A DNA stretch of 63,509 nt, filler included, from Licmophora abbreviata (Eukaryota), in the NCBI GenBank assembly GCA_900291995.1. It is 11 parts of 11 records of this genome, joined end to end, with 100 filler letters (N's around TTAATTAATTAA, not from the genome) between each part and the next. Parts side by side here need not be neighbours in the genome. Positions count along the whole stretch, not along the records: positions 1 to 9,797 come from OLMU01005630.1; positions 9,898 to 12,673 come from OLMU01005632.1; positions 12,774 to 17,333 come from OLMU01005634.1; 8 more parts are not named here. One strand, 5' to 3'. A model generated the notes under the pieces. It searched no databases. It was not told where the DNA came from and saw only the letters and a list, made by a program, of their open reading frames with translations. The position numbers were made by a program, and so were the translations under genes. The stretch's first letter is position 1. Each line of letters starts with the position of its first letter. This document shows, piece by piece, positions 1 through 63,027 of the stretch.

Positions 1-2852
1 GGATGCTGCCGATGGACTTTTACGGGTTTGTGTGAGACACTCGGTGGAAGCTTCCCGCTAAGAGACGAGCCCATCGTTGACCCAGGCCGTGGCGCAGAGG
101 GCTCATCTTCGTCTTTCGGTCCAAAATCGTAAGGTACCAGCTTGGGACCCTCTCCGTCTTTGCCGCTCTCCGGAGGAGCCCATTCTCCTTTGAAATCTAG
201 GTCTTCCGGAAGCGTCTCTCCCTCAAGTGGATTCTGCGGTGGTTCGTTTCCAACACCAAAAGCCGAAATGTCCCCTCCACCTCCGTCCAAACCTTGCCCA
301 TACATTTCTGGTGGAGATAATGACGGTCCCGTGTCCGATCCACCTTGAGGGGGCGAGATTGCGCTCCCTCCAGGTGGTTGTTCCATTCGTGGGCCCCCGT
401 CGGGTGCAGCATCATAGGAAGAAACGTCTCCATTCATACCATAAGACGCTGTGTCGCCGTTCATACCGTACGATGCTGTGTCGCCGTTCATACCGTATGA
501 TGATGTATCCCCGTTCAAACCGTATGATGAGGTATCCCCGTTCATACCGTATGATGAGGTATCTCCGTTCATACCGTATGATGAAGTATCTCCGTTCATA
601 CCGTATGACGAAGCATCACCATTGGTACCATAGGACGACGACATTCCACTATCTCTTTCAGGCTTTCCTTGCCCAGACTTGAAATTGTAGGGGCTAGGAC
701 CCATTCCAGGTCCAAAACTGCCCTTACTCGCACCCGGACTGGCAGAAGAAATCGATTCCTCACCCATGAGTGACCCACTGTCCTTGAAATCAAACGGTTG
801 GACACCAGGACCCCCACCCGGTCTCGGACCACCTCCGTTCATACCATAGGGCGGCATGCCCCCATTCATTCCGTAAGGCGGCATTTCCCCGTCCATACCA
901 TAGGGCGGCGGCATTTCCCCATAATTACCATAGGGTGACATGTCTCCGCCGTACGGGTCCCCATCTTCTTCTTGTCCAGATTTGAACATATACGGACTGG
1001 GGCCCATTCCAGGTCCGGGACCAGTTTTACTTGCACCAGACATTCCCATGTTCGATTGGTTTGGGGGTGGTCTATCTCCATTCATACCATAAGGTGACGC
1101 GCCCATGCCTGATCCGCCTTGCGGCGCAGAGGGACCTCCTCCTCCAGGCGGTGGTCGCATCCTCGGACCCTCATCTGGACGGTTGCCATACGAGGACCTA
1201 TCTCCATTCATGCCATAAGACGATACGTCTCCGTTCATGCCATTAGAGGACCTGTCTCCGTTCATACCGTACGACGATTGATCTCCGTTCATACCATTCG
1301 ATCCTCCATCCCCATTCATACCATATGAAGTATCACCATTCATACCATAAGACGATGTATCTCCGTTCATGCCATAAGACGTGTCACCATTCATGCCATA
1401 CGACGCCGTATCTCCATTCATTCCATAAGACGATGCATCTCCATTCATTCCATAAGAAGGCATTCCACTGTCTCGTTGAGGCTTTTCTTTTCCAGACTTG
1501 AACATGTAAGGGCTAGGTCCCATACCGGGTGCAAACCCACCAGCGCCGGGGGGCGATTTCATGCCTGACTTCGATCCATCTTGCGGCGGAGGGCCTCCTT
1601 GAGGCGACGGCCTAGTTTGTCGAGGTGAAAAGGACTCCGAGCTGGGGCCTTTTGCTGGCCTGTAGCCACTACCGTTGACACCAGAAGACGACATCGACCC
1701 GGCTGGAGGAGCGCTTCCTTTCGGTGGATACTGCGGCGACGTGCGAGCACTTCCGTTAACACCAGAAGACGGCGTCGACCCAGGTTGCGGCGCTGACGGT
1801 GCACTTCCTTTCGGAGGGGCCTTGCTATCGCCGAAACTACCCCTTCTGGGACCCTGCTGCGATGCATCACCGCTTCCGTTTACACCAGACGACGGAGTCG
1901 GTCCGGCCGGCGGAACCGACGGAGCGCTTCCTTTGGGTGGCATCTTGCTCTTCCCATATGACGTGTATAGGTCCGGATTAACTCGATTCGTATCCGTTTC
2001 CTTACCCCCACTTTGAGTCCAGCCTCTCGTGGAGATGCCCATGCTCGGTCCCCCCTGCGACGGCGGCCCGCTTCCCTTGGGGGGTGGCGCCCTGTCCTCA
2101 AAGTTGTAAAGTTTAGGACCCTGCTTTGGTCGTCCACTTCCGTTCAAACCAGAAGACGGCGGTTGTCCGCCCTGTGGTGGGCCTCCTCTCGGTGGCGGCC
2201 TGGCCTGCGTGTATATCTCCGAGCTGGTCTTCGAAGTATTTGCACCGCCACCCGCTGGCCAACCTCTGTTGGACGGCGGTGGTCTGGAACCGAGCTGCGA
2301 TGATTGCTGATCAGACGGCTGGTTGGTCTTCGGCTTGGCCTCTCCCCCTTGTGGATTCTCTGGGGACCACTTTCCAGAGTTTCCAAGAGACAGGTTGCCG
2401 ATATTTGAGGACGAACGGGGGCCGGATTGAGTGGGTCTCTCTGGTGGTGTCCTCTTCGAAAATGAAAAAATATCCATCACATTCGGGCCCGATAGTTTCG
2501 ATTCCCCTCTGTTCGGAGAGCCCTTCGGAAAAGACGGTCTACGCAGCCCTGCAAAAGGGTTCCCGGGCCCCGACGAGCCGTCAGCAGGGGGCGTTTGGTT
2601 CATTGGAGCTCCACTGTCTTCGCCTTGTTGGCTACTCTCCTCTGGCCCGCTGCTAGACTCTTCGTTCCCACCATCTGACTCTGGGAAAGGGTCGCTGGGG
2701 TCGGACTGCATGTTCCAGCCGATTCTGTTGCGTGGAAGAGCCATGACAGGTCTGCTGTGGGCGCCACTGCGAAACGTAAACGTGAATCCAGCGGCAGGCC
2801 GAGGCCAAGCGAGAGCCATCAGCAGCGGGACAGCAAACATCGAACGAGTCAT
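1..2852 (-). CDS. Plastid-targeted low-complexity repeat protein 1 (Gly/Ser/Pro/Tyr-rich, prion-like); 3' end runs off the window
   Basis: Not in the ORF track because it has no stop in the window. ATG at 2852 reads MTRSMFAVPLLMALAWPRPAAG|FTFTFRSG. Translated segments are open down to base 3, and no track ORF ends in this frame (~950 codons). Contains many SYGMNGD repeats, 3x GMGPSPYxFKSG and 3x PPKGSAP...SSGVNGS. The + strand ORFs 451-633 and 1675-2016 are its antisense shadows. Confidence 0.8.
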   Translation of the reverse strand, partial: MTRSMFAVPLLMALAWPRPAAGFTFTFRSGAHSRPVMALPRNRIGWNMQSDPSDPFPESDGGNEESSSGPEESSQQGEDSGAPMNQTPPADGSSGPGNPFAGLRRPSFPKGSPNRGESKLSGPNVMDIFSFSKRTPPERPTQSGPRSSSNIGNLSLGNSGKWSPENPQGGEAKPKTNQPSDQQSSQLGSRPPPSNRGWPAGGGANTSKTSSEIYTQARPPPRGGPPQGGQPPSSGLNGSGRPKQGPKLYNFEDRAPPPKGSGPPSQGGPSMGISTRGWTQSGGKETDTNRVNPDLYTSYGKSKMPPKGSAPSVPPAGPTPSSGVNGSGDASQQGPRRGSFGDSKAPPKGSAPSAPQPGSTPSSGVNGSARTSPQYPPKGSAPPAGSMSSSGVNGSGYRPAKGPSSESFSPRQTRPSPQGGPPPQDGSKSGMKSPPGAGGFAPGMGPSPYMFKSGKEKPQRDSGMPSYGMNGDASSYGMNGDTASYGMNGDTSYGMNGDTSSYGMNGDTSYGMNGDGGSNGMNGDQSSYGMNGDRSSNGMNGDVSSYGMNGDRSSYGNRPDEGPRMRPPPGGGGPSAPQGGSGMGASPYGMNGDRPPPNQSNMGMSGASKTGPGPGMGPSPYMFKSGQEEDGDPYGGDMSPYGNYGEMPPPYGMDGEMPPYGMNGGMPPYGMNGGGPRPGGGPGVQPFDFKDSGSLMGEESISSASPGASKGSFGPGMGPSPYNFKSGQGKPERDSGMSSSYGTNGDASSYGMNGDTSSYGMNGDTSSYGMNGDTSSYGLNGDTSSYGMNGDTASYGMNGDTASYGMNGDVSSYDAAPDGGPRMEQPPGGSAISPPQGGSDTGPSLSPPEMYGQGLDGGGGDISAFGVGNEPPQNPLEGETLPEDLDFKGEWAPPESGKDGEGPKLVPYDFGPKDEDEPSAPRPGSTMGSSLSGKLPPSVSHKPVKVHRQH
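425..640 (-). repeat. 27-bp coding tandem repeat (YGMNGDTSS)n; degenerate copies also at ~830-945 and ~1190-1465
   Basis: + strand unit ccgttcataccgtatgatgaggtatct, ~7 copies. Confidence 0.9.
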
Positions 2853-3297: not shown

Positions 3298-3310
3298 CGT
3301 AGAAAGCTAC
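3298..3310. promoter_or_regulatory. Shared upstream element CGTAGAAAGCTAC (gene 1)
   Basis: Same GTAG-N4-CTAC motif found upstream of all five cluster genes; ~450 bp upstream of ATG 2852. Confidence 0.5.
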
Positions 3311-3831
3311 CTTGTTCTTCTACGCTAATGTCACATACGACGCCTAATATATTCATTTGCATCAGAACGCCAGTCGACAGTCCAAAACAAGAGAGCGCTC
3401 CTGCTCTTACACAAGGCGGCGAGCTAAGGAGTGAGTCGACTCGTTGCGATGTCAGCCCTCTACTTAGAAGTTCGTATCATACAATCCGCTTCTCAGGTAT
3501 GGCTACATGTCAGGAAGTACACATCTGCACAGAAGGGGTGCTCGTAGACTGCATAGTATTCGGTCCTTCAGGGGTGGACCAAAAACTCGTTTGACTTGCA
3601 ACACAATCGCTATCCAAACTACCTGTGAATTTCTACAAGCAGGAAGGCGATTCGTTCAACGATACTGTGACCGTGTGCATGCCATTTCTTACAGAAAACT
3701 ACGAGTACCACCTCTATCCACTATAGCTAGAGACGACACTGCTCTTACAATTCTTAAGCCTGTTCTTCACACCCGATGGCATCGTACCAACCACTCACTT
3801 TGTATGATTACTTAATTTCGTCTTCCGTGGA

Positions 3832-6800
3832 TTACTTGTAGCTGTTCATTTCGAATGTCTTGGTGTTGAAAGACCCGCTGTTGGACCCAGATGCCGGCGG
3901 AAACACGTAGTCGCCCTTGTTCGCGTCGGGACGCTCCTCGACTCTAGTGCTGCCTTTCACGCGGCTAGCGAATGTGTTCATGGCTGCCTGGTATGGCTGT
4001 TCAGTAGCACATACCCTGTCCACCTTTGGTTTCTTTCCTCTTGTCGCACCTGAGAAGCTCGACATGGCTCCGTGATACGGTTGTTCCGGAGACCACGCCC
4101 GAGCCGTCTGTGGGATCCCACCTCGCAACGGTTTTCTTGGTCCGTCTACTAGACGGCCACCAGGGGAGCCACCGTAAGCACTCGTCTTCGACACAAGTTT
4201 CCGAGACGAGTTTCCGATTGCACGACTCGGTGGCGAGGAAATGACTCCTCTCTCTGGGTCTTTTCTTGTCACACTACGAGCGGGAGGCTTTACGTTCAAC
4301 CCGGGTGGGAACGCTGACATGGACTGCCGTGCATGTTCCCATGCCCGGTTGGCCTTGGCTCGCACCCCCATAGCAGGGTTCTTCGCATCCTGTTTCACAA
4401 GGCCACCAGAAGGGTTCAGCACGGGACTCATTCCCCGAAGAGGTTTTCTCGGCGCAGAAGCTTGCTGAGCCGTGGATCCAAGCCTACGTCCAGCGAAAGC
4501 TTCCATGGCCCTAACAAGAGGTTGGCCCGTGCCAGTTCGGGGTTTCCCTCCTCTGAGCGGCGTCTTTGGTGGTCCTGAGCGGTAGCGTTGTTTCGGTCCG
4601 GACCGAGAATAGTTGACGGTCGTTCCACCCGCAAAACTCGACATGGCTTGCATATATGGCTGTTCAGGTGTCCCGACGCGGTCGGCACGCGGGTTTCGCC
4701 AAGATCCAGCGAACGCCCGTCTAGCTTCACGCTGCTCCACGTATGCGTCTACCTGATCTGCTACCTCCTCGATATAAGCAAGATGCTCTTTGCCCGCTTT
4801 GGCGGCATCACTGATCTCTGCGATATATCCTTCTGCCATGGGCGACGCTTGATCAGCAGCGGGGGGAGAGTAAGCATCTCGTGCCGCTGCGTTCGACAAG
4901 GCAGGTGCGGCAGCAGAGGTGCTCATGCTGTCAAGGTAGCCTCTACCCTTGGCTGCCGTCTTCGGCTTTCCTCTCGCGGGCATCTTTTTCACTGGGCTGC
5001 CACCGAGCGCCGTAAGGTAGTCTCCGCTAGCGGCCGCTGGTGTAGATGTCGTAGCAGGAGTAACAGGAACAGCATTAGGGGATGCGTGTGAAGCTGGCCC
5101 TGTTGAAGTGGAGGAGGGAGGTGTCGCAGCAGAGGTGCCCATATTGTCAAGGTAGCCCATACCCTTGGCCGCCGTCTTCGGTTTGCCTCTAGCGGGCATT
5201 TTCTTCACTGGGCCGCCACCCAGTGCCGTGAGGTAGTCGCCTCCCGCCGGAGTGTTCGGCCCGGACGCCGGAATCGACGAGAAGGCAGGAGCAGCGGGAG
5301 CAGCAGCGGCACCTGACCACGCTGGTGTCGCGACACTGCTCATGTTGTCCAGGTAGCCTCTACCCTTGGTCGCCGTCTTCGGCTTGCCTCTGGCAGGCTG
5401 CTTCGCCACTGCACCTCCACCGAGTGCCGTGAGGTAGTCGCCTCTGGCCGGAGTCGACGACAAGGCGGGGGCAGCAGGAGCGGCGCCCGACCACGCCGGT
5501 GTAGCGACACTGCTCATGTTATCAAGGTAGCCTCTACCCTTGGTCGCTGTCTTCGGTTTGCCTCTGGCAGGCTGTTTTGACACTGCACCTCCACCGAGCG
5601 CCGTGAGGTAGTCGCCTCCGGCAGGAGTGCTTGGTCCGACTGCCGGTGTCGACGACCAGGCAGAAGCAGCTGGAGCTGCAGGTGTGATCGTCACAGCACT
5701 GCCCATGTTATCAAGGTAGCCTCTACCCTTGGCCGCAGTCTTTGGCTTGCCTCTGGCAGGCTGCTTTGACACTGCACCTCCACCGAGCGCCGTGAGGTAG
5801 TCGCCTCCGGCAGGAGTGCTTGGTCCGACTGCCGGTGTTGACGACCAAGCGGAAGCAGCCGGTGTTGCAGCACTTCCCATGTTATCGAGGTAGCCTCTGC
5901 CCTTAGTCGCAGTCTTTGGTTTGCCTCTAGCAGGAATTTTCTTCACAGGACCTCCACCTAGTGCTGCGAGGTAATCTCCTTCGGCAGTTTTGCTCGTAGA
6001 GGCCGCCGCTGTCGACGACCAAGCAGGAGCAGCCTGCGTGCTCGACCTCGCCGGCGTCGCAACAGCACTACCCATGTTATCAAGGTAGCCTCTGCCTGCG
6101 GCCGCCGTCTTTGGCTTGCCTCTCGGAGGCTGCTTCAATACTGGACCGCCACCGAGTGCAGATAGGTAGTCTGCTCCAGCAGGATTGCTCGAGACGGCGA
6201 CCGGCGGAGAGATGGCAGCAACAGCCGGAGGAACACTTCTGACACGAGGAGGCGTTCGGGTCAAGGCCGAAAACTCGGGAAGGGGGGCATTCTGTGGATC
6301 TGCCATGAAGACATGCACTGACTGCGCGACGCCCTTCAAGTAGGAGAGGTAATCCTTTGCAGAGCTCACAGTGCCCTCCAAGTCGGACAAGTAGTCCATA
6401 GCTTCCACCGGAGTACCGGCTGGACTCGCTGCGACTGCGGTGCCTCCACCGTTCAAGTGTGCAAGCTTGGACCTGACGTCGTGGGCAAGTTGCTCCATGT
6501 AGTTCAGATAATCCATCGCCGAAAGGGCGGCCTTTTCAACATTCGCGAGATACTCCCTTACTTCCGCCGGGTTTTGGAGGTCAGGAAGATCAGCTCGTCC
6601 GCTGCTGAGCGATGGCGGTGGTGATCCCGGGGTCGATTCGAGATCTACTAGATAGGCTCTCACCACGGTCGCTACCTCCTCAAGATACCCAAGATACTCT
6701 TTCGCTGTTTCTGCACCAGCAGCGATCTGGTTGAGGTATCCACACGCCAATTTGAAACCTTCCTGTTCTGACTGGGACATCTGTCCTGCCATATCCATAT

Positions 6801-6984
6801 CGGAAAGAAGTCCACCGCCGACAGAAACTAAGCTTTTGGTAAGAACCTTCAGGTCCATGGCTGAATTGGCAAAGACAGACGCTGATGTCTTGACATACGA
6901 CGGAGGTCGCTGGACAAAGGCGGCTGCTCCGCCAAGGGCGCAAATTACGAGCATCGCCAGGGGCCTTGACATGGTCGATCTCAT
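3832..6984 (-). CDS. Plastid-targeted repeat protein 2 (1050 aa; 7x DYLxALGG-PARGKPKT-GYLDNM)
   Basis: Long ORF. Presequence MSRPLAMLVICALGGAAA|FVQRP. Four helical YLxx[LIV]...YLxY[LM]ExVA repeats, seven Ala/Pro/Lys-rich repeats, and C-terminal QPYxxAMxxF motifs. Confidence 0.88.
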   Translation of the reverse strand: MRSTMSRPLAMLVICALGGAAAFVQRPPSYVKTSASVFANSAMDLKVLTKSLVSVGGGLLSDMDMAGQMSQSEQEGFKLACGYLNQIAAGAETAKEYLGYLEEVATVVRAYLVDLESTPGSPPPSLSSGRADLPDLQNPAEVREYLANVEKAALSAMDYLNYMEQLAHDVRSKLAHLNGGGTAVAASPAGTPVEAMDYLSDLEGTVSSAKDYLSYLKGVAQSVHVFMADPQNAPLPEFSALTRTPPRVRSVPPAVAAISPPVAVSSNPAGADYLSALGGGPVLKQPPRGKPKTAAAGRGYLDNMGSAVATPARSSTQAAPAWSSTAAASTSKTAEGDYLAALGGGPVKKIPARGKPKTATKGRGYLDNMGSAATPAASAWSSTPAVGPSTPAGGDYLTALGGGAVSKQPARGKPKTAAKGRGYLDNMGSAVTITPAAPAASAWSSTPAVGPSTPAGGDYLTALGGGAVSKQPARGKPKTATKGRGYLDNMSSVATPAWSGAAPAAPALSSTPARGDYLTALGGGAVAKQPARGKPKTATKGRGYLDNMSSVATPAWSGAAAAPAAPAFSSIPASGPNTPAGGDYLTALGGGPVKKMPARGKPKTAAKGMGYLDNMGTSAATPPSSTSTGPASHASPNAVPVTPATTSTPAAASGDYLTALGGSPVKKMPARGKPKTAAKGRGYLDSMSTSAAAPALSNAAARDAYSPPAADQASPMAEGYIAEISDAAKAGKEHLAYIEEVADQVDAYVEQREARRAFAGSWRNPRADRVGTPEQPYMQAMSSFAGGTTVNYSRSGPKQRYRSGPPKTPLRGGKPRTGTGQPLVRAMEAFAGRRLGSTAQQASAPRKPLRGMSPVLNPSGGLVKQDAKNPAMGVRAKANRAWEHARQSMSAFPPGLNVKPPARSVTRKDPERGVISSPPSRAIGNSSRKLVSKTSAYGGSPGGRLVDGPRKPLRGGIPQTARAWSPEQPYHGAMSSFSGATRGKKPKVDRVCATEQPYQAAMNTFASRVKGSTRVEERPDANKGDYVFPPASGSNSGSFNTKTFEMNSYK
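4920..6180 (-). repeat. Seven ~165-210-bp coding repeats in repeat protein 2
   Basis: Recurrent + strand blocks catgttatcaaggtagcctctaccctt... and ccaccgagcgccgtgaggtagtcgcc... Confidence 0.9.
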
Positions 6985-7195
6985 TCTGTGCCTTCTCTTT
7001 CAAGCCTCACGATCAGGAGCAGCGAGGTTTTGACAGACAAGGCTGATGGATTTTACAACTTTGATGGCAATGCGATCTTTTTTTCTGTTGGATGGATCTC
7101 TGTGATTGCTCTGTGATGATGCCTCCTGCAAAAGATCGGCACAAAATCACCGTCACGCACAAATCAAAATTCACCATGGCTCGGCTAGCTCCAAA

Positions 7196-7213
7196 TGCGT
7201 AGAAACCTACGCA
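7196..7213. promoter_or_regulatory. Shared upstream element TGCGTAG-AAAC-CTACGCA (gene 2), perfect 7-bp inverted repeat
   Basis: ~215 bp upstream of ATG 6984; matches consensus CGTAGAAANCTAC. Confidence 0.6.
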
Positions 7214-7826
7214 ATGTTTGAAATGTGGAAACCTACACAAAAGTCAAATTTTGAAATGGACGGCTCAGAGGCACTCGTACGTCATTATTGGCTCATATCC
7301 CATCTTACATTGCTAGCACAACACACAAACCAAACGATCTAACTCAAAGGACCTTGTTTCTTGTATTACTCATATCAGAATTCATCTTAAATGTTAAACA
7401 ATCATTGCAATTGAAGCCGCCGTCGGTTAGACTTGTCTACGGGAAGGCGTTCTGGTGGTGCTGGACTTTGGCACCTACTTAGAAGACTATGGTTAGATAG
7501 CCTTCTTGTACCTGGGAGTTAAAATGCAACGCATATGATCCCCATCACATGATCTACATTTCACCCTTTTGGTCGACACCAGGAAGGGAGCTGGTTCACA
7601 TCGTTACCTACCGTAGCTACGAAGCTACGCTACTGCGTGTTTGTCGACGCAGAAACGAAGGCTATTGTTTAAAATAGTAAGGCAGCTCTACTTGACTTCA
7701 AGGGCCGTTCCTATCTACATCGTACTGAAAGCTGATCTCTGTACTGACATGCCTCGCACACGAAGACTTCCATCATGCAACGTAAGTTTGCCCGCTTTTG
7801 ACTATTTGAAGTATCCTGCACTAGAT

Positions 7827-9377
7827 CTAGGGCGCGAAACCGGACATCCGAGTGCCGTTGGCAAAAACGACCTTCCTCGCTTTCATGCTAACTGATGTCC
7901 TGGTGGGGGTGTAGCTAGTTGTCTCGCTTGTGTCGGCCGGGCTGCCCGCGACTGGTTTAGAAATAGCGACCCTCATACGTTCGGAAGTGCGCACCGTCAC
8001 CAACTTGCCATCCATACTGATAGCATCGGCGCTTGATTTCTCGTAGCTATCCGCAGATAGAGGAGAGAGAAAGCCCGCGTAAGCCTCCATATACGAGGCG
8101 CTCGGTTCCAGTGTCGCAGCACGTTCGTTCGCTGCAAGAAACGATGACCGTTTTGACACCCGAGTGGGATGTACGTCAGGCTTCCTTGACATCTTCCTCC
8201 AAGGATTGCCAGTCCGGCCAGAGGAAAGACCGTTGGGGGCCGCCACCATTGCTTCCAGCGGAAGTTTTGCGGCCTTCGGGGCACTCGTGGCTCGTTCGTG
8301 AGGAGCCATACTATCGGTAGGCCCACATCCCTGCGGTAGCAGTGTTACGCTATCGGTCGGCGCGGCTTTCTTTGCCATCGCGAAGTATTTCCTCATGTTT
8401 GACTCCGTTCGAGGCGGTCCCGAGACATTTCCATCCGTTCCAGACGCAGCGAATCCCGACATGGCCATTCCATGAGGCGTTTCGTTGGACGAAAAGGGCT
8501 TCTGCTTGAGCCTGACGGCTTCTGTCCTTGGAGCAACCCTCGAACGTTCGATGTATCCAGACGGGGCGCTACGATGAGTGGCCGTACTTGTCCGACTTGC
8601 AGGCAGAGAAGATAGCTCTCGTTCTGTTGTCTTTGGCGGTGAGCTCTTTGCGAGCGCGAAGTAGCTTCTCAGTGTTGAGTCCGTCCGACGTTTCGTGTAC
8701 GTTTTCCCGTCTCGACCGGATGCATCGAAGGCCGCCATGGCCCTTTCAAAGGGCGCATCATGCATTGAAAGTGTCTTTGGTTTAGCCCCCGCCATGGACG
8801 AGTTTCTCAGGGGTCTATTGGAAGACTCCATGGATCCAGCTGAAGCAGTGTTGCACGAAGATACCATGTTCGATTCACGCGGATGTGAGTTATCGGCTGG
8901 ATTTGTCTCTGTCGCCGGGGCCTTTAGAAGAGCAGAGCTATTCTTGATCGTCCCAGGCTCCAACTGAGGATTTGATCCCGTTCCTCTTTTCCTTTCGGAG
9001 GATACAAACGAAGACACCGTTCTGTGATACTGTAATCCATCGTTCGATGAAGACGTCCTTCGGTGCCCTGGCTCTATGGAATCAGGAGGAATCATTCTGA
9101 GATACGGTCGGATCTTCGACGAAGGCTGTCGCTCCATCTCCTTAGATGGTACACTGCTACTCTTTGGAAAGGAGAAGTCAACCCTTGCAGCCGACTGAGT
9201 TCCCGCGGACCTGTCCACAGCGACCGAATTGGTTTTTGGCGCGTCTCCCCTGAGCAGTTTCTTCAATCTCGCTTCTGACATAATCCTACGAAAGCAGGCG
9301 CCGGGAACAAGCGTAAACCCAGCTGCAACGTGAAGCAGCGTTGCTAGCAGCATCACAGCCTGCATCAACCGCATCAT
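7827..9377 (-). CDS. Plastid-targeted Ser/Arg-rich disordered protein 3
   Basis: ORF 7827-9440. Likely start MMRLMQAVMLLATLLHVAAG|FTLVP at 9377 (in-frame upstream ATG at 9437). Two repeats PF/HxxAMxxFxASGxDG...RTxSx[LM]RxYFAxAK. N-terminus paralogous to gene 4. Confidence 0.8.
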   Translation of the reverse strand: MMRLMQAVMLLATLLHVAAGFTLVPGACFRRIMSEARLKKLLRGDAPKTNSVAVDRSAGTQSAARVDFSFPKSSSVPSKEMERQPSSKIRPYLRMIPPDSIEPGHRRTSSSNDGLQYHRTVSSFVSSERKRGTGSNPQLEPGTIKNSSALLKAPATETNPADNSHPRESNMVSSCNTASAGSMESSNRPLRNSSMAGAKPKTLSMHDAPFERAMAAFDASGRDGKTYTKRRTDSTLRSYFALAKSSPPKTTERELSSLPASRTSTATHRSAPSGYIERSRVAPRTEAVRLKQKPFSSNETPHGMAMSGFAASGTDGNVSGPPRTESNMRKYFAMAKKAAPTDSVTLLPQGCGPTDSMAPHERATSAPKAAKLPLEAMVAAPNGLSSGRTGNPWRKMSRKPDVHPTRVSKRSSFLAANERAATLEPSASYMEAYAGFLSPLSADSYEKSSADAISMDGKLVTVRTSERMRVAISKPVAGSPADTSETTSYTPTRTSVSMKARKVVFANGTRMSGFAP

Positions 9378-9514
9378 CTTGAACAAACAGCTTTTTCTGT
9401 TGCGTTGATTTTTGATTTTGTCATTGTGATGATCCATCACCCATCACCCATCACTCGCGCCAGTTTTGAATTTCGAAATTGGAAGGAAATGTCAAGTGCG
9501 CGAGTAGAGATTCG

Positions 9515-9527
9515 CGTAGAAATCTAC
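9515..9527. promoter_or_regulatory. Shared upstream element CGTAGAAATCTAC (gene 3)
   Basis: 138 bp upstream of ATG 9377. Confidence 0.6.
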
Positions 9528-9797
9528 AGGAAAAAGTCGACCAACAATCCAGCGTGCGTTCCACATCCGCATTATTGATATTTTGTTATGTGAGAGGTCG
9601 AACGCCAAGGAACAATGATGGAAGTTTGAATCAATGTTGCCGATGGCCCTGGCGGGAGTGGACCGATAGACTAGGAGAGTCTAGTAGACCTAGAGACTAC
9701 CGGTAGTGCATTCGAATCCTTTCTATAATGGCCTTTCATAGAACGTTAGTACAACTTAGTCAGGTGCAATGAGTGTCATTTTTTAAAATCACTCTTT

Positions 9798-9897
9798 NNN
9801 NNNNNNNNNNNNNNNNNNNNNNNNNNNNNNNNNNNNNNNNNTTAATTAATTAANNNNNNNNNNNNNNNNNNNNNNNNNNNNNNNNNNNNNNNNNNNN
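9798..9897. other. Artificial contig spacer (N44-TTAATTAATTAA-N44); identical spacers at 12674-12773, 17334-17433, 20675-20774, 26421-26520, 31357-31456, 39469-39568, 58852-58951, 60128-60227, 62157-62256
   Basis: Exactly 100 bp each, with a six-frame stop linker. Confidence 0.98.
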
Positions 9898-11422
9898 ATG
9901 GCCATGCGACCCAGGGTGTGATAAACTGCCTTTAGACTCTGACAAGCCGTCCTGTCGCTTCGGTGTCGTGCTCTTCGTGTGCGCGAATGAACTCCGCGAC
10001 GATGACCGGGCTGGAAGTCTCGCTGCCGCCGTCCCGTCCATCTCGGATGCTGCCAGCGACGGCAAGCTATCGTATGATGAAGTGCCTCTTTTCTTATCAG
10101 ACGCGATGGGAGGAACATTTCTAATCGACGACGGGCGAACGATCGACCCAGACTCAGACACGTTGCCATTCGGCTCTGGTGAGCTCCCTTTCGGCTTGGG
10201 TGCCGTCTTTTTCATTGGCGCAAAGAGACTCCTCAACGATGAGCCTGTGGGAAGCGCCGCTGCCGTCTCCTCATCCTTTTCGGAATCCGTCAACAAAGGT
10301 GCTTCTTCACTATTTGAAGTCCCTTGCTTCTCAGCCTCGCTGGAGTCAGAAGGAATACTCATGGTGGATGACGGGCGAGTACTCGACCCAGGCTTCAACA
10401 TGCTTCCATTTATACTCCCAGACATTGGCAATAAGCTTTCGTTTGGTGTCATGTTCTTTATGGGTGCCAAGTCCCTCTTCTGCGGTGAGACCCTTGGAGC
10501 TCCCGCCTCCACCATTCCATCCCTTTCGGATGCTACCAACGACAGCGATTGTTCGTGAGATGAAGATGGCTCCATCTTCTCAGCCTCACTGGAGTCAGAA
10601 GGAACACTCATGGTGGATGACGGGTGAGTACTCAACCCAGGCTTCATCACGCTTTCGTTTCTATTCGCAGACACTGGCAAGCTTTTGTGCGGTGTCATGT
10701 CCTTTATGGGCGCCAAGTCGTCACTCTTCTGCGGTGAGACCCTTGGAGCTCCCGCCTCCACCACTGCATCCCTTTCGGATGGTTCGTGAGATAAAGATGT
10801 CCTTTTCTTCTCATCCTGTGTAGAATCGGAAGGAATATTCCTGGTGGATGGTTGGCGAATAGTCGACCCAGGAATCATCACGTGTTCGTCATTATTCACA
10901 GATACTGGCAAGCTTTCTTTCGGTGTCATGCTCTCTGTTGGCGCGATGTCACTCCTCTGCGGTGTTCCCGTTGGATCTTTCGCTGCCACGTTTCCATCCA
11001 TTTCGGAGGATACCAACGAAGGTGAACTCTCGTGCGGTGGAGACGCCGCCTTTGTCTCAGCCTGAATGGAATCAGAAAGCGATTTTCTGGTAGACGATGC
11101 ACGAACATTCAATCCAGGCTCGGGTACGTTTTCTTCGCTGTCCGGTTCGCTCTCTTTAGAGTCTGCTACACATTCTTTGGAATCTGGCGCGCTAGCTTTT
11201 AGGTTCAGGCTCGTCGGCAAACTTTGCAAAGAAGAATTCATCGCTCACAGAAGAGGCGGACAGAGAATTTGGATGTAATTTTCGCATTTCTCCATTGAAC
11301 AGTTTCCTCAATCGCGCTTCTGAAAGAATCGTCCGAAGAGAGGCACTGCGAGGGGGCGTAAACCCAGTCGCAAGCGTTAGCCACACTGTCAGTAGCAGGA
11401 CAGCCTGCATGAACCGCATCAT
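9898..11422 (-). CDS. Plastid-targeted Ser/Pro-rich repeat protein 4 (apparent frameshift at ~11197-11200; 3' end in gap)
   Basis: ORF 11192-11422 (MMRFMQAVLLLTVWLTLATG|FTPPRS) joins ORF 9850-11241 if one A is removed from CCTAAAAGCT, giving ...EPEPKASAPDSKE. About five ~70-aa repeats (PGSSTRPSST..IPSDS..AEK...SE[RMK]DG...LAP[IM]KxxTP). Confidence 0.75.
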
Positions 11423-11560
11423 CGTGAAGAAACCGGTTCGAGTTTGAGTTCTCTTTTCTCCATGGTGATTCTAAGCTCAGAGTTCAGAACTTCAAAGCGT
11501 TTCAATCTTTAAGTCGATTTTGTGTCTGTATACTACGAAGTACTAGGTACCAGATGTTTG

Positions 11561-11573
11561 CGTAGAAACCTAC
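11561..11573. promoter_or_regulatory. Shared upstream element CGTAGAAACCTAC (gene 4)
   Basis: 139 bp upstream of ATG 11422. Confidence 0.6.
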
Positions 11574-12080
11574 GGGAGAGCACTCTGTACGTCGTACGTT
11601 GGGAGTGTATGAACACAGAAGATTCGATCCCCAGCGTTTCATTAAACTTTCACAAGAAAGTATTATCTTTTATGAGAGTACGCACGTTGGAGAGTGATCG
11701 ACGACGCAGACAAGCATACACTGCACACACCAGAGTCAGTCAGACGCTTTGCGTTTGAAGGGCTATCTGCACTATCGTCGATTGGCGGCGCCGAGTTACA
11801 CACTGTGCTGCATCGGTAGACCCTGCCGTTTGCACCGTTATCAGCCACCCATCACACTTCCACCTACTGTAGAGAGTAAACTGTACTTGTATGGGCAAAC
11901 ACATCTTGTTAACCTTAGCTCTGCGATGTTTGAAATGATGGTATCATGTCGGTACTGTCGCCTGGTCGGCTTTAGCGATGGCGCTCGACTGCTCGGGAAT
12001 TTTCTTGTGTCCTCGCTCTCCTCCTGAACTAGTCGATGCGAATTGCTCTCGTCTGCAAATTCGCTAAAAATATTGTCGAA

Positions 12081-13392
12081 CTAGGAAGCCAAGCTCTGAA
12101 CCCTGGTCCCATCAATCCTAGACGACACAAACTCGGTCATGGCTCTAGCATAAGGCGATTCTACGGACGAAGCAAATGAAAACTCCGCCGGCTTGGGTTG
12201 ATGAGACCCGGGTGGAACATTGTTGAGAAACGGCTCGAGATTAGACCCTGCCACTGGCGCACCACCGCTCGGGCGCGCTGTGCTCGTGGCAAGTGCCGAT
12301 GTAGAGGTCGCGGAGTTCGCCGTCGAGCTCGCTACGAGAGCCGCCGTGTTCTTGATTGGTGTCAAGTTACGGGGTCCTGCAACCCTTCTCCCATCGATGC
12401 CGGACAGCATAAACTCTGCCATGGCTCTTTCATAGGGGGTTTCTACTCTCGATGCAAAAGAAGCCTGTTCTCGGTTCGCGGGCCCGGGATAGCCCGGTGG
12501 GACATTGTTGAGGAAGGGCTCCAGATTCGAACCTCCCCGAGGTGCTCTCACAGCTGGAAAATCAGCGCTGGTCGTAAGCGCGGAGCTGCTCTTTGTCAGG
12601 GTTGAGGCAAACAGGGACGTCTTGGTTGCGAAAGCTGGTTTCACGTTCAACCCTGATTTGATGGATCCGTGTGNNNNNNNNNNNNNNNNNNNNNNNNNNN
12701 NNNNNNNNNNNNNNNNNTTAATTAATTAANNNNNNNNNNNNNNNNNNNNNNNNNNNNNNNNNNNNNNNNNNNNTTGGCGGGTGCAGCCTCTTCCACTGCA
12801 GCCTCTTTCGGTGCAACAGCCGTGTCCTTGGCGCTGGTCTCCTTGGCAGTTGCACTCTTCTTGTTGGGTGCCAGCGTTTTGGCAGCAGTACCCGTAGTAG
12901 TAGCAGCAGCAGTGGTGGTGGCGCGTCTCGCTACCCTCCTCCCATCGATCCCCGAAAACAGAAACTCCAACATGGTCCTCTCGTAGGGCGATGCTTCCTT
13001 CGATTCAAATAAGCGCGCCAGATTCAAGCGAATGTCCTTGTAGTAAGAGCCAGGTGGGACATTAAAGAGAAACGGCTCACTGTCCGAACGCGGAGCCCTC
13101 TCTTTCGCCTGTGGTGGTGTAGTAGTCGTCGTTGTTACGAAACCACTACTCTCCGTGTTGCTCCCGTCGGAGATGATAGAAAGACCTTGTGTAGCATTCT
13201 GGTCGTATCTTTTTGACTGCTGCTGCTAGTAGCTGGGACGGACCCTGCTGCATGATGTGAGAAACTTCGTCCCTGCGAGCCTATAGAGCCACTGTTGATG
13301 AATGGAGCAAATTGTAGCGTGAATCCAGCCACAAGCTGTGACCCGCACAGAGCCATCAGAAGCGGAAGAACGTGTGCAGAGAGAATCAACAT
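12081..13392 (-). CDS. Plastid-targeted repeat protein 5 (spans gap 12674-12773; apparent frameshift at ~13210-13214)
   Basis: ATG 13392 MLILSAHVLPLLMALCGSQLVAG|FTLQF. Adding one A in CAAAAAGA links it to the frame RYDQNAT...EPFLFNVPPG...SPYERTMLEFLFSGIDGRRV. The same repeat (EPFLNNVPPG...PYERAMAEFMLSGIDGRRV) occurs twice more after the gap, in ORF 12081-12650. Confidence 0.75.
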
Positions 13393-13575
13393 CCTGACAG
13401 AGAGACTGAGAGAGGGTCTGCAGAAGTGCACTCACTTGTCTATTAGTCTACTGTCGTGTGGAAGTGAGTGTTAACCGAACGTGAGAATCGAATCAACCTG
13501 AAAACTGAAAATCCATTCTTGCGTGGTGCAGTTTTGAGTGTTGAAGCGAGCTCTCGTCGGCCGGTAATGATTTCG

Positions 13576-13588
13576 CGTAGAAATGCAC
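13576..13588. promoter_or_regulatory. Shared upstream element, variant CGTAGAAATGCAC (gene 5 / divergent ALDH)
   Basis: 184 bp upstream of ATG 13392; TTCGCGTAGAAAT is identical to the gene 3 site. Confidence 0.45.
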
Positions 13589-20927: not shown

Positions 20928-21573
20928 CTTCGCAACAAGGCGAGGCAGGTGTGAATGAATGATGTGTCGGTTTCCGCTTGTGACTTGTGTCGACGAGCAA
21001 TGCGAATTAATTTGAAATCCTATGAGAACTTGGAGTGTTCGCCCGCGACGTGAGACGCCCTCCCCGCGCGCCACTCCACAACGGATGACGGCCAGAAGCT
21101 GATGGAATGGTCTGCGGCGAGCTCGCAGGAACGCCGACCTCGACAGTGCGCACGCCGGTTGAACTTTGCCTTCCTCCGGATCTTGGTCGTCCGTGTTGAA
21201 CAATGCAGGGAGAGAACTGCCGGTAGAAGAATGATATCATACTGTGAGAGAGAAGAGGTGATCGCTGTGTGAAAAAGAGCACAGCAGTGACTATGGTATC
21301 AGTGTTTCTGTTGTGAAAGACATCTCTAACGTGATTTCATCCTGGGATCGAGATACCGGCACTTTGATTAGTACTATCATAGCTAGGTCTCTAGGCACGA
21401 GCTTCTGGTGCACTTCTACGCAGTGAGCAGTCCAGTAACACAGTGGGTACTAAGCCACTGGTAGAAGACATATAATACACGTAGCTCTCTGTCAAATGAA
21501 GTAGCTTTGCATACGAGGCTCAAATTGTTATAGTATGTTAGTAGTAGCAGGTGAAAAAGTAGTCACGAACGCG

Positions 21574-22269
21574 TCAGCAGTCAGCCGACTGAAAAAGTTC
21601 GCTGGCCGTGGCAACATGATGCAGCTGACACGACAGTTGACCAGAATAAGAGTCATGACGGGCTTCTGCGCTCTTCAGTTCGTCTTCAGACAGGCCTGCC
21701 ACGTTCCGTAGCAAATTTCGTCTTTGGTAATAGTTGAGGCGAATAGGAACATGATAGGGAGCTTTAGTATCGTCGATAGTCCCGTGAGACTCGACAAACT
21801 CCCACCCCAGCGCTAGGGGGAGGGAGCCACAAAATGGATGATCCCCGATAGTACGAGAGTACTCTCGTACAGATATGTTGTCGTCAAAGGAAACGGATTT
21901 TGTGTGTCGTCGTTGATGACGTGAAGACAGGTCGAGGTCTGGAAGTTCTTCTGGGCAGCTTTCGACCGACATGTCGTCGTCGTCCATGGAAGAAGATGAT
22001 GAAGAAGAGGTCCACTCGGAGGAAGAGACAGAGGAGTCAAAGTTGGGAGCGGCAGAAGCGACGGGAGAAACTTCTTGGTCGCTCGCTTTCAACAGCTCAG
22101 CGTGGGAGAGTTGGCGCAAGACGGGAAAGTCGGACCAGTCGAACGAGACTTCCACAGACGGGGACAGCGATACTCTCAGCTTGTTGTCGTCCATAGAGGA
22201 GACTCTACTTGCGATGGTAGCAGCAGGGAACGGCTCATGGTGGCAAAACAAGAGGTTGTGGACCGTCAT
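21574..22269 (-). CDS. Hypothetical protein with RVxF-like KSVSF...VREYSRTIGDHP...LALGW motif
   Basis: 231-aa ORF; Ser/Asp-rich linker followed by a motif I recognise as recurrent in diatom hypothetical proteins (CSRNP N-terminus-like). Confidence 0.7.
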   Translation of the reverse strand: MTVHNLLFCHHEPFPAATIASRVSSMDDNKLRVSLSPSVEVSFDWSDFPVLRQLSHAELLKASDQEVSPVASAAPNFDSSVSSSEWTSSSSSSSMDDDDMSVESCPEELPDLDLSSRHQRRHTKSVSFDDNISVREYSRTIGDHPFCGSLPLALGWEFVESHGTIDDTKAPYHVPIRLNYYQRRNLLRNVAGLSEDELKSAEARHDSYSGQLSCQLHHVATASELFQSADC

Positions 22270-43886: not shown

Positions 43887-49857
<5,971 letters not shown>

Positions 49858-52600: not shown

Positions 52601-54031
52601 TCAGGTCTCGAGCTGTTTTAGCGCTTGCAGGAGCTCCATCTGACTGCGGGTCCTGATCGTGGACCGCCGGATTGCCATATGCGATCTCCTCTTGCTCTTT
52701 TCTCTCCCCTTGAGAAAATATGTCTCCATTTCTCCAATCCCCTTGACAGAAACAGCACCCCGCTTTTCAAACTCAAATTCAGTGCCCGACACGGCATCGA
52801 CCACCGCCTGGGTAACTTGCACACGACCGGGAACGCCCGTGGACTCCATTCTCGACGCAACGTTCACTGCATCTCCCCAAATATCGTATAAAAAGCGCTT
52901 GGTCCCCACCACACCCGCCACAACAGGACCCGTATTGATACCGACGCGCATGCTGAGTGGAAACCCGCCGTTGTTATCATTGTTGTAATTGTTAATCTCG
53001 TGAATGACATCCATGGCGAAATGACAAACGGCGGCACATGTCTTGGGAGGATCCTTGCAGCCGGGGATGGATGTGACCATATCTAAAGAGACGGCGGAAG
53101 CAACAGAGCGGGAGTCAAGAATCTTTACTAAAGAGCAAGATCAAACCGTCGAATGCGCCTGGACACAGTCAAACTTACAACAATCACCAATTGTCTTGAC
53201 CTTGTTGAGACCATAGTCGTCAAGTCGGGCGTCAAACCTGGAGAAAACGTCGTTAAGGAACTGGACGACCTGTATTGGTTCCAGTGAGTTACTCTTCTCG
53301 GTAAAGCCAACAATGTCCGCAAACAGAATCTAGTGGGAGGAGAATGAGAGACAGATGAGTTCGAAAGACTACTTGTGGCTAGCTAGGGAGACGGGACCCA
53401 TGTAGGTCTTTTGACGTACCGTGGCTTCCGCAAAGTGGTCAGCAATGTGCGTCGGGTCGTCTTTCAAACGATGGGCGATTTCGGCAGGGAGCATATTAAA
53501 CAAGAGTGCCTCTGCCGCCCGTTTCTCAACTGCCAATTCAATGGCCTTGAGCTCGTCAGTAGTGTCTTGGATAAAACCAACCAAGAGGTTCGAACAATTT
53601 GGAAGTTTCTGAATCCCAATACGACAGGGAAAGGTTGAATCGTCTTTCCGCCGAGCGATTTCAGGACGTTTCACTCCCAAAGCCCGAGAAGTTCTCCCCC
53701 TTTCCTTGAATTTGAGCATGTACTCGTCGTGCCTAGCAGCATGCTCTGGATCTCCAACGAGAATGCTGCAATTCTGGCCTTCGAGCTCTTTTGTACTGTC
53801 GTAGCCGAAGACCTTCGCAGCCGCCGAATTGACTTTCACAATGATCCCTTCTTCGTCCACGAGAAAGGTAGCCTCGAAGCTCGCTTCAAGAATGCTAGTG
53901 CTGAGCATGAGCTCGGAGGAACCTTCAGAAGAAGAGGCACAACGGAGAACGGATTTCTGAATTTCTTCGACGCCGTACTGTTTCATCAGACGACGAATTT
54001 CTCGGTCCATTTCAGCCTTCAAAGTAGACAT
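52601..54031 (-). CDS. Soluble PAS-domain class III adenylate cyclase; introns 53330-53419 and 53083-53178
   Basis: Spliced product: PAS (..HDEY..ARRKDDSTFP), LLFNMLPAEIA helix, ATILFADIVGFT, KVKTIGDCYM, MRVGINTGPVVAGVVG, YDIWGDAVNVASRMES. Lys/Asp specificity residues indicate ATP. Confidence 0.9.
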
Positions 54032-62256: not shown

Positions 62257-63027
62257 CAGATTCGCACCCTTGCCGCCCAATTCCAGGCTGACCCGCTTGA
62301 GCGTGTCGGCAGCGGCCTTGGAGATCAGTTTGCCCGCGCGCGAAGAGCCTGTGAAGCTGACCATGTCGACATGCTCGTGGGTCGACAGCTGTGTGCCCAC
62401 GCCCGCGCCATCGCCATTCACCAGGTTGAACACGCCTTTGGGAAAGCCTGCCTCGTGCATCATCTCGGCGAAGAGCATGGCCGAGAGCGGCGATTCCTCG
62501 GACGGTTTGAGCACCATGGTGCAGCCCGCGATAACACCCGCGATCACCTTGAGCGTGACCTGGTTCATCGGCCAGTTCCAGGGCGTGATCATCGCCACCA
62601 CCCCGATGGGTTCATGCACGATCCGGTCATTGGGGGCGTGAGCGCCAAGCGGTTCCATGAACTCGAAATCCTGTGCGACGGTCAGGAACGCCTTGATATG
62701 GCCAAGGCCCGCGCCGGCCTGTTGCTGGCGAGCCATGTCGATGGGCGCGCCCATTTCCATGCTGATGGCCTGGGCCATCTCTTCGGAGCGGGATTTGTAG
62801 ACGTCATAGAGCTTTTCGACGAGCGCCAGCCTCTCGGCCTTGCTGGTACCGCACCATGCGGGAAAGGCCGCGTGAGCAGCGGCGACGGCCGCATCGGTAT
62901 CGGCCTGACCGCCAAGCGAGATCACCGCGCAGGGATCTTCGGTGGAGGGGTCGATCACGTGGTAATCGGTTCCGGCGCGGGCATCGACCCAGGCACCATC
63001 AATGTAGAATTGCCGTTTTTCGATCAT
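62257..63027 (-). CDS. Bacterial aldehyde dehydrogenase, 3' partial
   Basis: FYIDGAWV, ITPWNWP, LKPSE, SFTGS, LELGGKG; Shine-Dalgarno AGGAGG ~8 bp upstream of ATG. Confidence 0.92.

Follow-up and report, generated by a model that had tools for sequence, protein, structure and literature searches.

A conserved quasi-palindromic element upstream of five tandem genes of Licmophora abbreviata: a candidate promoter-proximal cis-regulatory site

Introduction

The DNA under study is a stretch of 63,509 bases from the genome of the diatom Licmophora abbreviata (assembly GCA_900291995.1), made up of eleven parts joined end to end and referred to below as the window. It holds a cluster of five co-oriented genes for repeat proteins, and upstream of each of them lies a copy of a short quasi-palindromic element, CGTAGAAANCTAC on the plus strand, which had been noticed in an initial annotation and is characterised here with respect to its occurrence, its conservation and its probable role.

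Results

Genes of the cluster

All five cluster genes are on the minus strand, so that the sites of the element are found on their upstream side. The genes are given below (gene coordinates in the window, strand, encoded protein; a slash marks the end of the signal peptide).

3..2852, minus strand: gene 1, G/S/P-rich, with SSYGMNGD repeats and signal peptide ...AAG/FTF; 3' end beyond the window.
3832..6984, minus strand: gene 2, 1050 amino acids, signal peptide ...AAA/FVQ, helical N-domain, GDYL...GYLDNM repeats.
7827..9377, minus strand: gene 3, 516 amino acids, S/A/R-rich, signal peptide MMRLMQ...AAG/FTL.
9898..11422, minus strand: gene 4, paralogue of gene 3, signal peptide MMRFMQ...ATG/FTP, S/P-rich; 3' end lost in the gap 9798-9897.
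12081..13392, minus strand: gene 5, signal peptide ...VAG/FTL, repeated EPFL.NVPPG...PYERAM.EF modules; interrupted by the gap 12674-12773.

The window contains ten linkers of the form N44-TTAATTAATTAA-N44, with stop codons in all frames; two of these, 9798-9897 and 12674-12773, cut genes 4 and 5, so that the piece order and the gene ends depend on the joins, which are taken on trust. The reading frame shifts near 11242 in gene 4 and within 12725-13240 in gene 5; the shifts may reflect short introns or, the genes being repetitive, errors of assembly.

Each of the five proteins begins with an N-terminal signal peptide ending in AG/F or AA/F, which we take to be the pattern of diatom plastid import, and continues in low-complexity repeats rich in S, P, G and A. 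The 5' ends of the genes are alike in their signal-peptide regions only, the remaining coding parts being too diverged to align. A module P[YF]xxAMxxF, which could be a sticker or a binding motif, is present in genes 2, 3 and 5 (EQPYMQAMSSF, APFERAMAAF, SPYERTMLEF, TPYERAMAEF, SPYARAMTEF) and had no match in 95,018 six-frame control residues (16001-63509). By their similar signal peptides and this shared module, the cluster genes look functionally linked.

Anatomy and position of the sites

Read in gene sense, the element is GTAG-N-TTTCTACG(C), of which all five sites contain the 8-mer TTTCTACG; written as patterns on the gene-sense strand, its forms are GTAGNTTTCTACG and TTTCTACG(C). The sites and their partial copies are as follows.

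3298..3310, minus strand: site 1, gene-sense GTAGCTTTCTACG, 445 bases upstream of the ATG of gene 1 (2852).
3318..3325, plus strand: inverted partial copy at site 1, TTCTACGC, 13 bases from site 1.
7196..7213, minus strand: site 2, TGCGTAGAAACCTACGCA; 13-mer core at 7198-7210, 213 bases upstream of the ATG of gene 2 (6984).
7224..7236, minus strand: partial tandem copy, TGTGGAAACCTAC, 26 bp from site 2 and in the same orientation.
9515..9527, minus strand: site 3, gene-sense GTAGATTTCTACG(CGAA), 137 bases upstream of the ATG of gene 3 (9377).
11561..11573, minus strand: site 4, gene-sense GTAGGTTTCTACG(CAAA), 138 bases upstream of the ATG of gene 4 (11422).
13576..13588, minus strand: site 5, a variant, gene-sense GTGCATTTCTACG(CGAA), 183 bases upstream of the ATG of gene 5 (13392).

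Gene-sense reads of sites 1 to 5 are, in order, gGTAGCTTTCTACGtg, cGTAGGTTTCTACGca, tGTAGATTTCTACGcg, cGTAGGTTTCTACGca and aGTGCATTTCTACGcg; TTTCTACGC is common to four of the five sites. The distance from element to ATG is 445, 213, 137, 138 and 183 bases in genes 1 to 5 (the values for genes 3 and 4 require the ATG of MMRLMQ and MMRFMQ at 9377 and 11422, respectively), and the orientation relative to the gene is constant in all five, in agreement with the initial annotation, which had given distances of about 450, 215, 138, 139 and 184 bp and one orientation throughout. The same annotation had described the site at 7196 as a perfect inverted repeat, and the 18-mer TGCGTAGAAACCTACGCA does indeed have matching arms of 7 bp. 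Its proposal of a dimeric, two-fold symmetric site fits four of the copies; against it, site 5 breaks the palindrome and the AAA of the spacer is invariant.

At site 5 the left half-site is lost (GTGC for GTAG in gene sense) and TTTCTACGCGAA is retained, identical to site 3 over that part. The T-run (AAA on the plus strand) is the same in all five sites and makes the site polar, so that the element is both symmetric (GTAG/CTAC) and polar. Local doubling is seen at two sites, and clustered factor sites often look like this: TTCTACGC at 3318-3325 makes an inverted repeat CGTAGAA...TTCTACG with 3298-3304, and the tandem copy at 7224-7236 has retained GAAACCTAC and lost CGTAG or, in gene sense, retained GTAGGTTTC and lost TACG, the opposite of site 5. 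The latter site sits in a divergent intergenic region shared with an aldehyde dehydrogenase gene (ATG 13915, plus strand).

Occurrence in the window

Four exact matches to CGTAGAAANCTAC are present in the window, at 3298, 7198, 9515 and 11561, all on the plus strand; together with the variant CGTAGAAATGCAC at 13576 they place the element upstream of all five cluster genes, as had been claimed initially. In 100 dinucleotide-preserving shuffles the mean number of exact matches was 0.00, and four or more were found in none. Allowing up to two mismatches, nine matches were obtained against 2.89 expected (nine reached in 0/100 shuffles), including the variant at 13576 and the partial second copy at 7224. 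The spaced pattern GTAG-N4-CTAC has four matches in the whole window, and these are sites 1-4.

De novo comparison of the five upstream regions (3,421 bases) gave the same word. The longest word common to all five has 8 bases, a length of at least 8 being reached in none of 300 shuffles (corrected for discovery), and the longest word common to at least four has 9 bases, with at least 9 likewise in 0/300; every word of at least 7 bases common to at least four regions derives from the element. Over-representation against a composition-matched null with discovery correction, as expected of a generic transcription-factor cis-element, was thus found. Compared with the background of the window (118,416 strand-bases; about 59 kb, both strands), the core TTTCTACG has five copies in the upstream regions versus two outside, both of them coding and within the open reading frame (ORF) 47605..49857. 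It was not found upstream of 17 other large ORFs in the window, which include leucine-rich repeat (LRR) proteins, a ureide permease, a pyruvate:NADP oxidoreductase-like pair, a PAS protein and a sulfatase-modifying enzyme. The element therefore stands upstream of all five cluster genes and of no other ORF in the window, where it is specific to the cluster. The shorter word TTCTACGY has nine matches in the window against 2.45 expected, six of them in the cluster upstream regions.

A look-alike, GTGCACTTCTACGC, is present at 21408-21421 (plus strand) and is close to the variant GTGCATTTCTACGC of site 5; its position is some 150 bases beyond the 3' end of the minus-strand ORF 21574-22269, with no matching plastid-type gene downstream.

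Another word, ACGYACG/CGTRCGT, has six matches in the five upstream regions (3.4 kb) and four in the background of about 59 kb. It occurs in four of the five regions, about 329, 298, 182 and 177/264 bases before the ATGs of genes 1-4, and in genes 3 and 4 it is some 30-40 bases upstream of the element. We do not claim it as a second shared box: the choice was made post hoc, and several other 7-mers are as good.

Conservation against the flanks

Ungapped identity of the 80 bp flanks on either side of the element is 0.19-0.38 in all ten pairs of sites. Local alignments of the complete upstream regions score at best as shuffled sequence does, except where the aligned stretch is the motif itself; this is the case in three pairs, of which that of genes 2 and 4 alone beats every shuffle (32 versus a null maximum of 30). 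One alignment between the regions of genes 1 and 4, unrelated to the motif, ties the shuffle maximum (30). The 11-mer CTTCTAAGTAG, shared by regions 1 and 2, was rejected, its score being at null level.

The 5' coding parts are alike to a degree that shuffles do not reach: identity is 73% over the first 150 coding nucleotides of genes 3 and 4 (0/300 shuffles as high) and 62% over the part coding for the signal peptide in genes 1 and 5 (0/300), whose element flanks are random; the 5' coding part of gene 1 is also alike to those of genes 3 and 4. In the pair of genes 3 and 4 the spacer between element and ATG (137/138 nucleotides) is 56% identical, with a score reached by 1/300 shuffles, a block TCCyGTAGrTTTCTACGCrAA around the element is identical at 18 of 21 positions, and the 150 nucleotides upstream of the element are random (score reached by 248/300 shuffles). 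Four of the copies keep 12-13 of the 13 positions of the element and the fifth keeps 11, so that the element stands out as a footprint from the neighbouring non-coding DNA, in a comparison of paralogues within one genome.

These values bear out the initial description of the flanking intergenic DNA as dissimilar. Extended promoter homology left by duplication had been named there as an observation that would speak against a regulatory site; the genes do descend from duplication, and extended promoter homology was not found. As the upstream regions are without such homology, passive inheritance alone does not explain the element; and as its flanks are randomised while the signal-peptide coding parts are alike, it is an island kept after an old tandem duplication.

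Seven marine-metagenome DNA runs (best word share 0.29), and no RNA run, were among the sequencing runs listed as sharing words with the DNA. Four of the seven were aligned to 6190-9797 (short, near-identical contigs); the one contig over site 3 (9389-9539) has no differences, and site 2 had no coverage. Upstream of gene 2, at 7340-7412, some 60-70 bases are matched by many metagenome contigs that diverge on both sides, and this segment is perhaps a short dispersed repeat, or else a fragment that is widely conserved.

Relatives of the cluster proteins

A search at near length gave no homologues of gene 3 (other lengths were outside the search) and one weak match for gene 2, for which a full HMMER search gave 28 relatives (P0003-P0030). 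Eighteen of these were retrieved; they mostly have a signal peptide ending in AF (where the N-terminus is complete), a helical N-domain and SYLD-type repeats. Their N-domain is threefold helical (…EYL.YLE.VA…), and in several the terminal tail is DDWEF, DDWSF or DKWEF; gene 2 has no such tail. The names of ten relatives were not informative, and the ESM Atlas gave no usable match for the N-domain of gene 2.

Gene 2 scored 50.6 bits (E 2.9e-13) against Pfam PF25195 DPC2 (diatom pyrenoid component 2), below the gathering cut-off of 70 bits, and of 12 relatives scanned, nine gave sub-threshold matches and none reached the cut-off. Gene 2 is accordingly not assigned to this family, its likeness being confined to the SYLD/GYLD repeat region. 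The part of the preprint used here describes DPC2 as a protein of the pyrenoid matrix in Thalassiosira pseudonana whose function is unknown (bioRxiv 10.1101/2023.10.26.564148). Gene 1 has a single KWSP beside its many SSYGMNGD tyrosine repeats. KWSPR and GTGYNP are the sticker motifs of the Rubisco linker PYCO1 of Phaeodactylum, in which KWSPR, in six copies, binds Rubisco, according to the relevant passages of the source (PMC10288592); the one KWSP of gene 1 is a lead, no more. A pyrenoid or plastid-condensate role of the cluster proteins is plausible from these features.

Neighbouring genes and other loci

The aldehyde dehydrogenase next to gene 5 has its best named relatives in the diatoms Ditylum (74%), Odontella (69-71%) and Seminavis (69%), which bears out the initial description of the DNA as that of a diatom; the closest relative, P0034 (79%), is on a metagenome contig of 10.5 kb that may carry the syntenic cluster. 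Six loci of aldehyde dehydrogenase relatives (53-67% identity), short, with at most about 490 bases upstream and of unknown synteny, contained neither TTTCTACG nor GTAG-N4-CTAC, and the best match to the 14-mer in them has at least four mismatches, a lack of copies to be taken as uninformative. Metagenome contigs were scanned with an alignment of gene 2 and 16 relatives; 59 stretches fit the peptide pattern, and none of them encodes a relative.

Other features of the window are listed here.

44937-49857, plus strand: two adjoining ORFs that jointly resemble pyruvate:NADP oxidoreductase (PFOR domains, then flavodoxin, FAD, NAD).
53372-54031, minus strand: ORF of 220 amino acids with a PAS (PAS_9) domain, possibly one exon of a light- or signal-sensing protein.
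62257-63027, minus strand: second aldehyde dehydrogenase fragment, near the window end.

Comparison with known elements

Phylogenetic footprints in the promoters of tandem duplicates are short blocks kept in position and orientation while the rest decays. They are a general category and not a defined family, and here the coding parts have diverged as well, the signal-peptide regions alone being alignable.

The CO2/cAMP-responsive element (CCRE) of diatoms, reportedly first described by Ohno et al. in 2012, resembles the present element in several respects: both are short, are found no more than a few hundred bases away from the start codons of diatom plastid or CO2-concentrating genes, can occur in double or inverted form, and are presumed to make a set of genes respond alike. 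Their sequences, however, are unrelated. The CCRE is TGACGT/C, the target of PtbZIP11 in the ptca1/ptca2 and PtBST1 promoters of Phaeodactylum tricornutum, and both bZIP binding and the response to CO2/cAMP are experimental results in the sections of the papers cited (PMC11142338, PMC5067629), whereas the element described here is known from sequence alone and has no TGACG core. It was rejected as a CCRE (PtbZIP11 site) for want of TGACGT/C. TGACGT/ACGTCA has two copies in the five upstream regions, at background density (0.58 versus 0.49 per kb), and CCRE-like or ACGT-core boxes, tried as a second shared element, are not enriched.

Heat-shock factors (HSFs) are the largest transcription-factor family in diatoms. 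Heat-shock elements consist of inverted nGAAn units, and TTCTAGAA is bound by the HSF PITG_04701 of Phytophthora infestans, as given in the excerpted text of PMC11267843. The core of our element has one unit of the same letters (TTCTA / TAGAA) and shares the inverted-repeat character, but is without a second GAA unit at canonical spacing (TTTCTACG, not TTCTAGAA); its half-sites are GTAG/CTAC, in contrast to the GAA/TTC of the heat-shock element. As a full heat-shock element has at least two inverted nGAAn units (GAAnnTTC or TTCnnGAA) and the present one a single TTC/GAA unit, this assignment was rejected, and the likeness may serve as a lead to the factor family, no more.

The words CGTAGAAA, TTTCTACG, GTAGAAANCTAC and GTAGNTTTCTAC were not found as whole words in the literature searched, supplementary motif tables being outside the search; papers pairing the two 8-mers with 'diatom' are, by their titles and the beginnings of their abstracts, not on cis-elements. 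The initial statement that the element is no recognised, characterised diatom cis-element can thus be kept: it is not a CCRE, and the literature searched is without the word as an element.

Discussion

A conserved island, a fixed orientation and a promoter-proximal position are the look of a functional cis-element, and on this sequence evidence we consider it fairly probable that the element is a promoter-proximal factor-binding site under selection, common to the members of an old tandem family whose proteins are plastid-targeted and disordered. It would be a regulatory DNA site of five genes for plastid-targeted, largely disordered repeat proteins, inherited with a 5' module (promoter plus signal-peptide exon) at the tandem duplication of an ancestral gene; selection would have kept the element intact while the surrounding promoter DNA drifted to randomness. 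A sequence-specific transcription factor would bind it, giving coordinated transcription of the five genes, and would probably contact the two inverted GTAG half-sites, whose centres are 8 bp apart, while also reading the asymmetric A/T-run. Upstream ATGs lie 41-77 nucleotides before the main ATG in genes 1, 3 and 4; if leaders avoid upstream ATGs, the leaders of these genes would be short and the element would be located upstream of the transcription start.

Several points weigh against such a site. The element could be transcribed; its four exact palindromic copies are between tandem genes, so that each is also 3' of a cluster gene, and the sole site with no cluster gene before it, site 5, is the variant. 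As the genes arose by duplication, the five sites cannot be counted as independent, and part of what they share in orientation and position is inherited. For genes 3 and 4 alone, an island of 12/13 in a spacer of 56% identity is unremarkable, so that the case rests on the five-way conservation. All evidence comes from one locus, and with a background of only 63.5 kb, which is small, the element may be confined to the cluster or common genome-wide. The factor family cannot be named, and cross-species support is missing, the six aldehyde dehydrogenase loci (synteny there unknown) having no copy.

If transcribed, the element might act in the 5' leader, as a hairpin (GUAG-NUUU-CUAC) or as a single-stranded word for an RNA-binding protein affecting translation or stability of the five mRNAs, or else at the transcription start itself as a core-promoter or initiator-like element. 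The inverted-repeat symmetry of four of the five sites, the folding of site 2 at -10.4 kcal/mol (2/200 shuffles as good) and of site 3 better than shuffles (4/200), the strict single orientation, which suits a strand-specific (RNA) reading, and the 193 ATG-free nucleotides before the start codon of gene 2, which make a long leader possible, all fit the leader version. Against this, stems in sites 1, 3 and 4 are of 4-5 bp (-3.5 to -5.3 kcal/mol), for sites 1 and 5 shuffled sequences often fold equally well (129/200 and 101/200), and Rfam gave no matches; with two of five sites folding clearly better than shuffles, the element does not qualify as a structured RNA hairpin. Nor is there a compensatory change: site 5 (GUGC) breaks the stem yet retains UUUCUACGCGAA, so that sequence is conserved and not pairing. 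Upstream ATGs between element and start codon in all five genes also speak against a leader position, and we regard a transcribed element as unlikely. Slightly more doubtful still is an element without function, left by duplication as junction micro-homology or a short gene-conversion tract and kept by chance or by a low local mutation rate. Their 5' coding likeness marks the genes as an old tandem family, the homology of genes 3 and 4 ends at the element as at a junction, and a single locus supplies all the evidence; but shuffles never reproduce the shared word, the flanks are randomised in all ten pairs, yet the element itself has lost at most one of its 13 positions in four copies and two in the fifth, and we know of no pattern in which a conversion tract of 13-20 bp is repeated across five promoters.

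The element could instead belong to the gene on its other side, as a 3'-end, termination or boundary (insulator) signal between tandem units. Such a signal would agree with four exact copies between co-oriented cluster genes, about 507-616 bases past the stops of genes 2, 3 and 5, and with the degenerate state of the sole site that has no co-oriented upstream gene. Site 5, however, retains the 8-mer core and the CGAA extension though no cluster gene ends upstream of it; the spacing to the downstream ATG is nearly fixed (137, 138) in the paralogues 3 and 4, homology runs from the element toward the downstream gene and not away from it, and no other gene in the window is followed by a copy. A 3' untranslated region of 500-600 nucleotides would, moreover, be long for diatoms, and this explanation appears very improbable. 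Least credible is a word common throughout the genome, whether a promoter element of general use or part of a dispersed repeat: the look-alike at 21408-21421, with no matching gene beside it, agrees with a common word, but in the roughly 59 kb outside the upstream regions the core was found only twice on both strands, both times in coding sequence, and the full 13-mer not at all.

Beyond the cluster, a wider version of the factor-binding site may be imagined, in which the element is bound by an unknown dedicated regulator of a 'plastid condensate' regulon, present genome-wide and in related diatoms and separate from CO2/cAMP-bZIP11/CCRE control, that sets the stoichiometry of the proteins of the CO2-fixing compartment; its targets would be genes for pyrenoid-matrix and other plastid-targeted disordered proteins. 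This proposal is speculative, and we hold it to be rather unlikely.

What stands at present is a promoter word conserved among tandem paralogues; this is an ordinary kind of feature, at one locus, and as such it is well supported. In the portions of the literature cited, CCRE/bZIP11 is the only characterised cis-element tied to CO2-concentrating genes (PMC11142338), and those same portions are silent on the co-regulation of pyrenoid-matrix or plastid-targeted disordered proteins in diatoms. If the element marks such a gene set, it would provide a handle on the regulator, for example by DNA pull-down or DNA affinity purification sequencing (DAP-seq); a cheap computational tag by which further members may be predicted in uncultured diatoms; and a compact promoter part for the co-expression of several transgenes.

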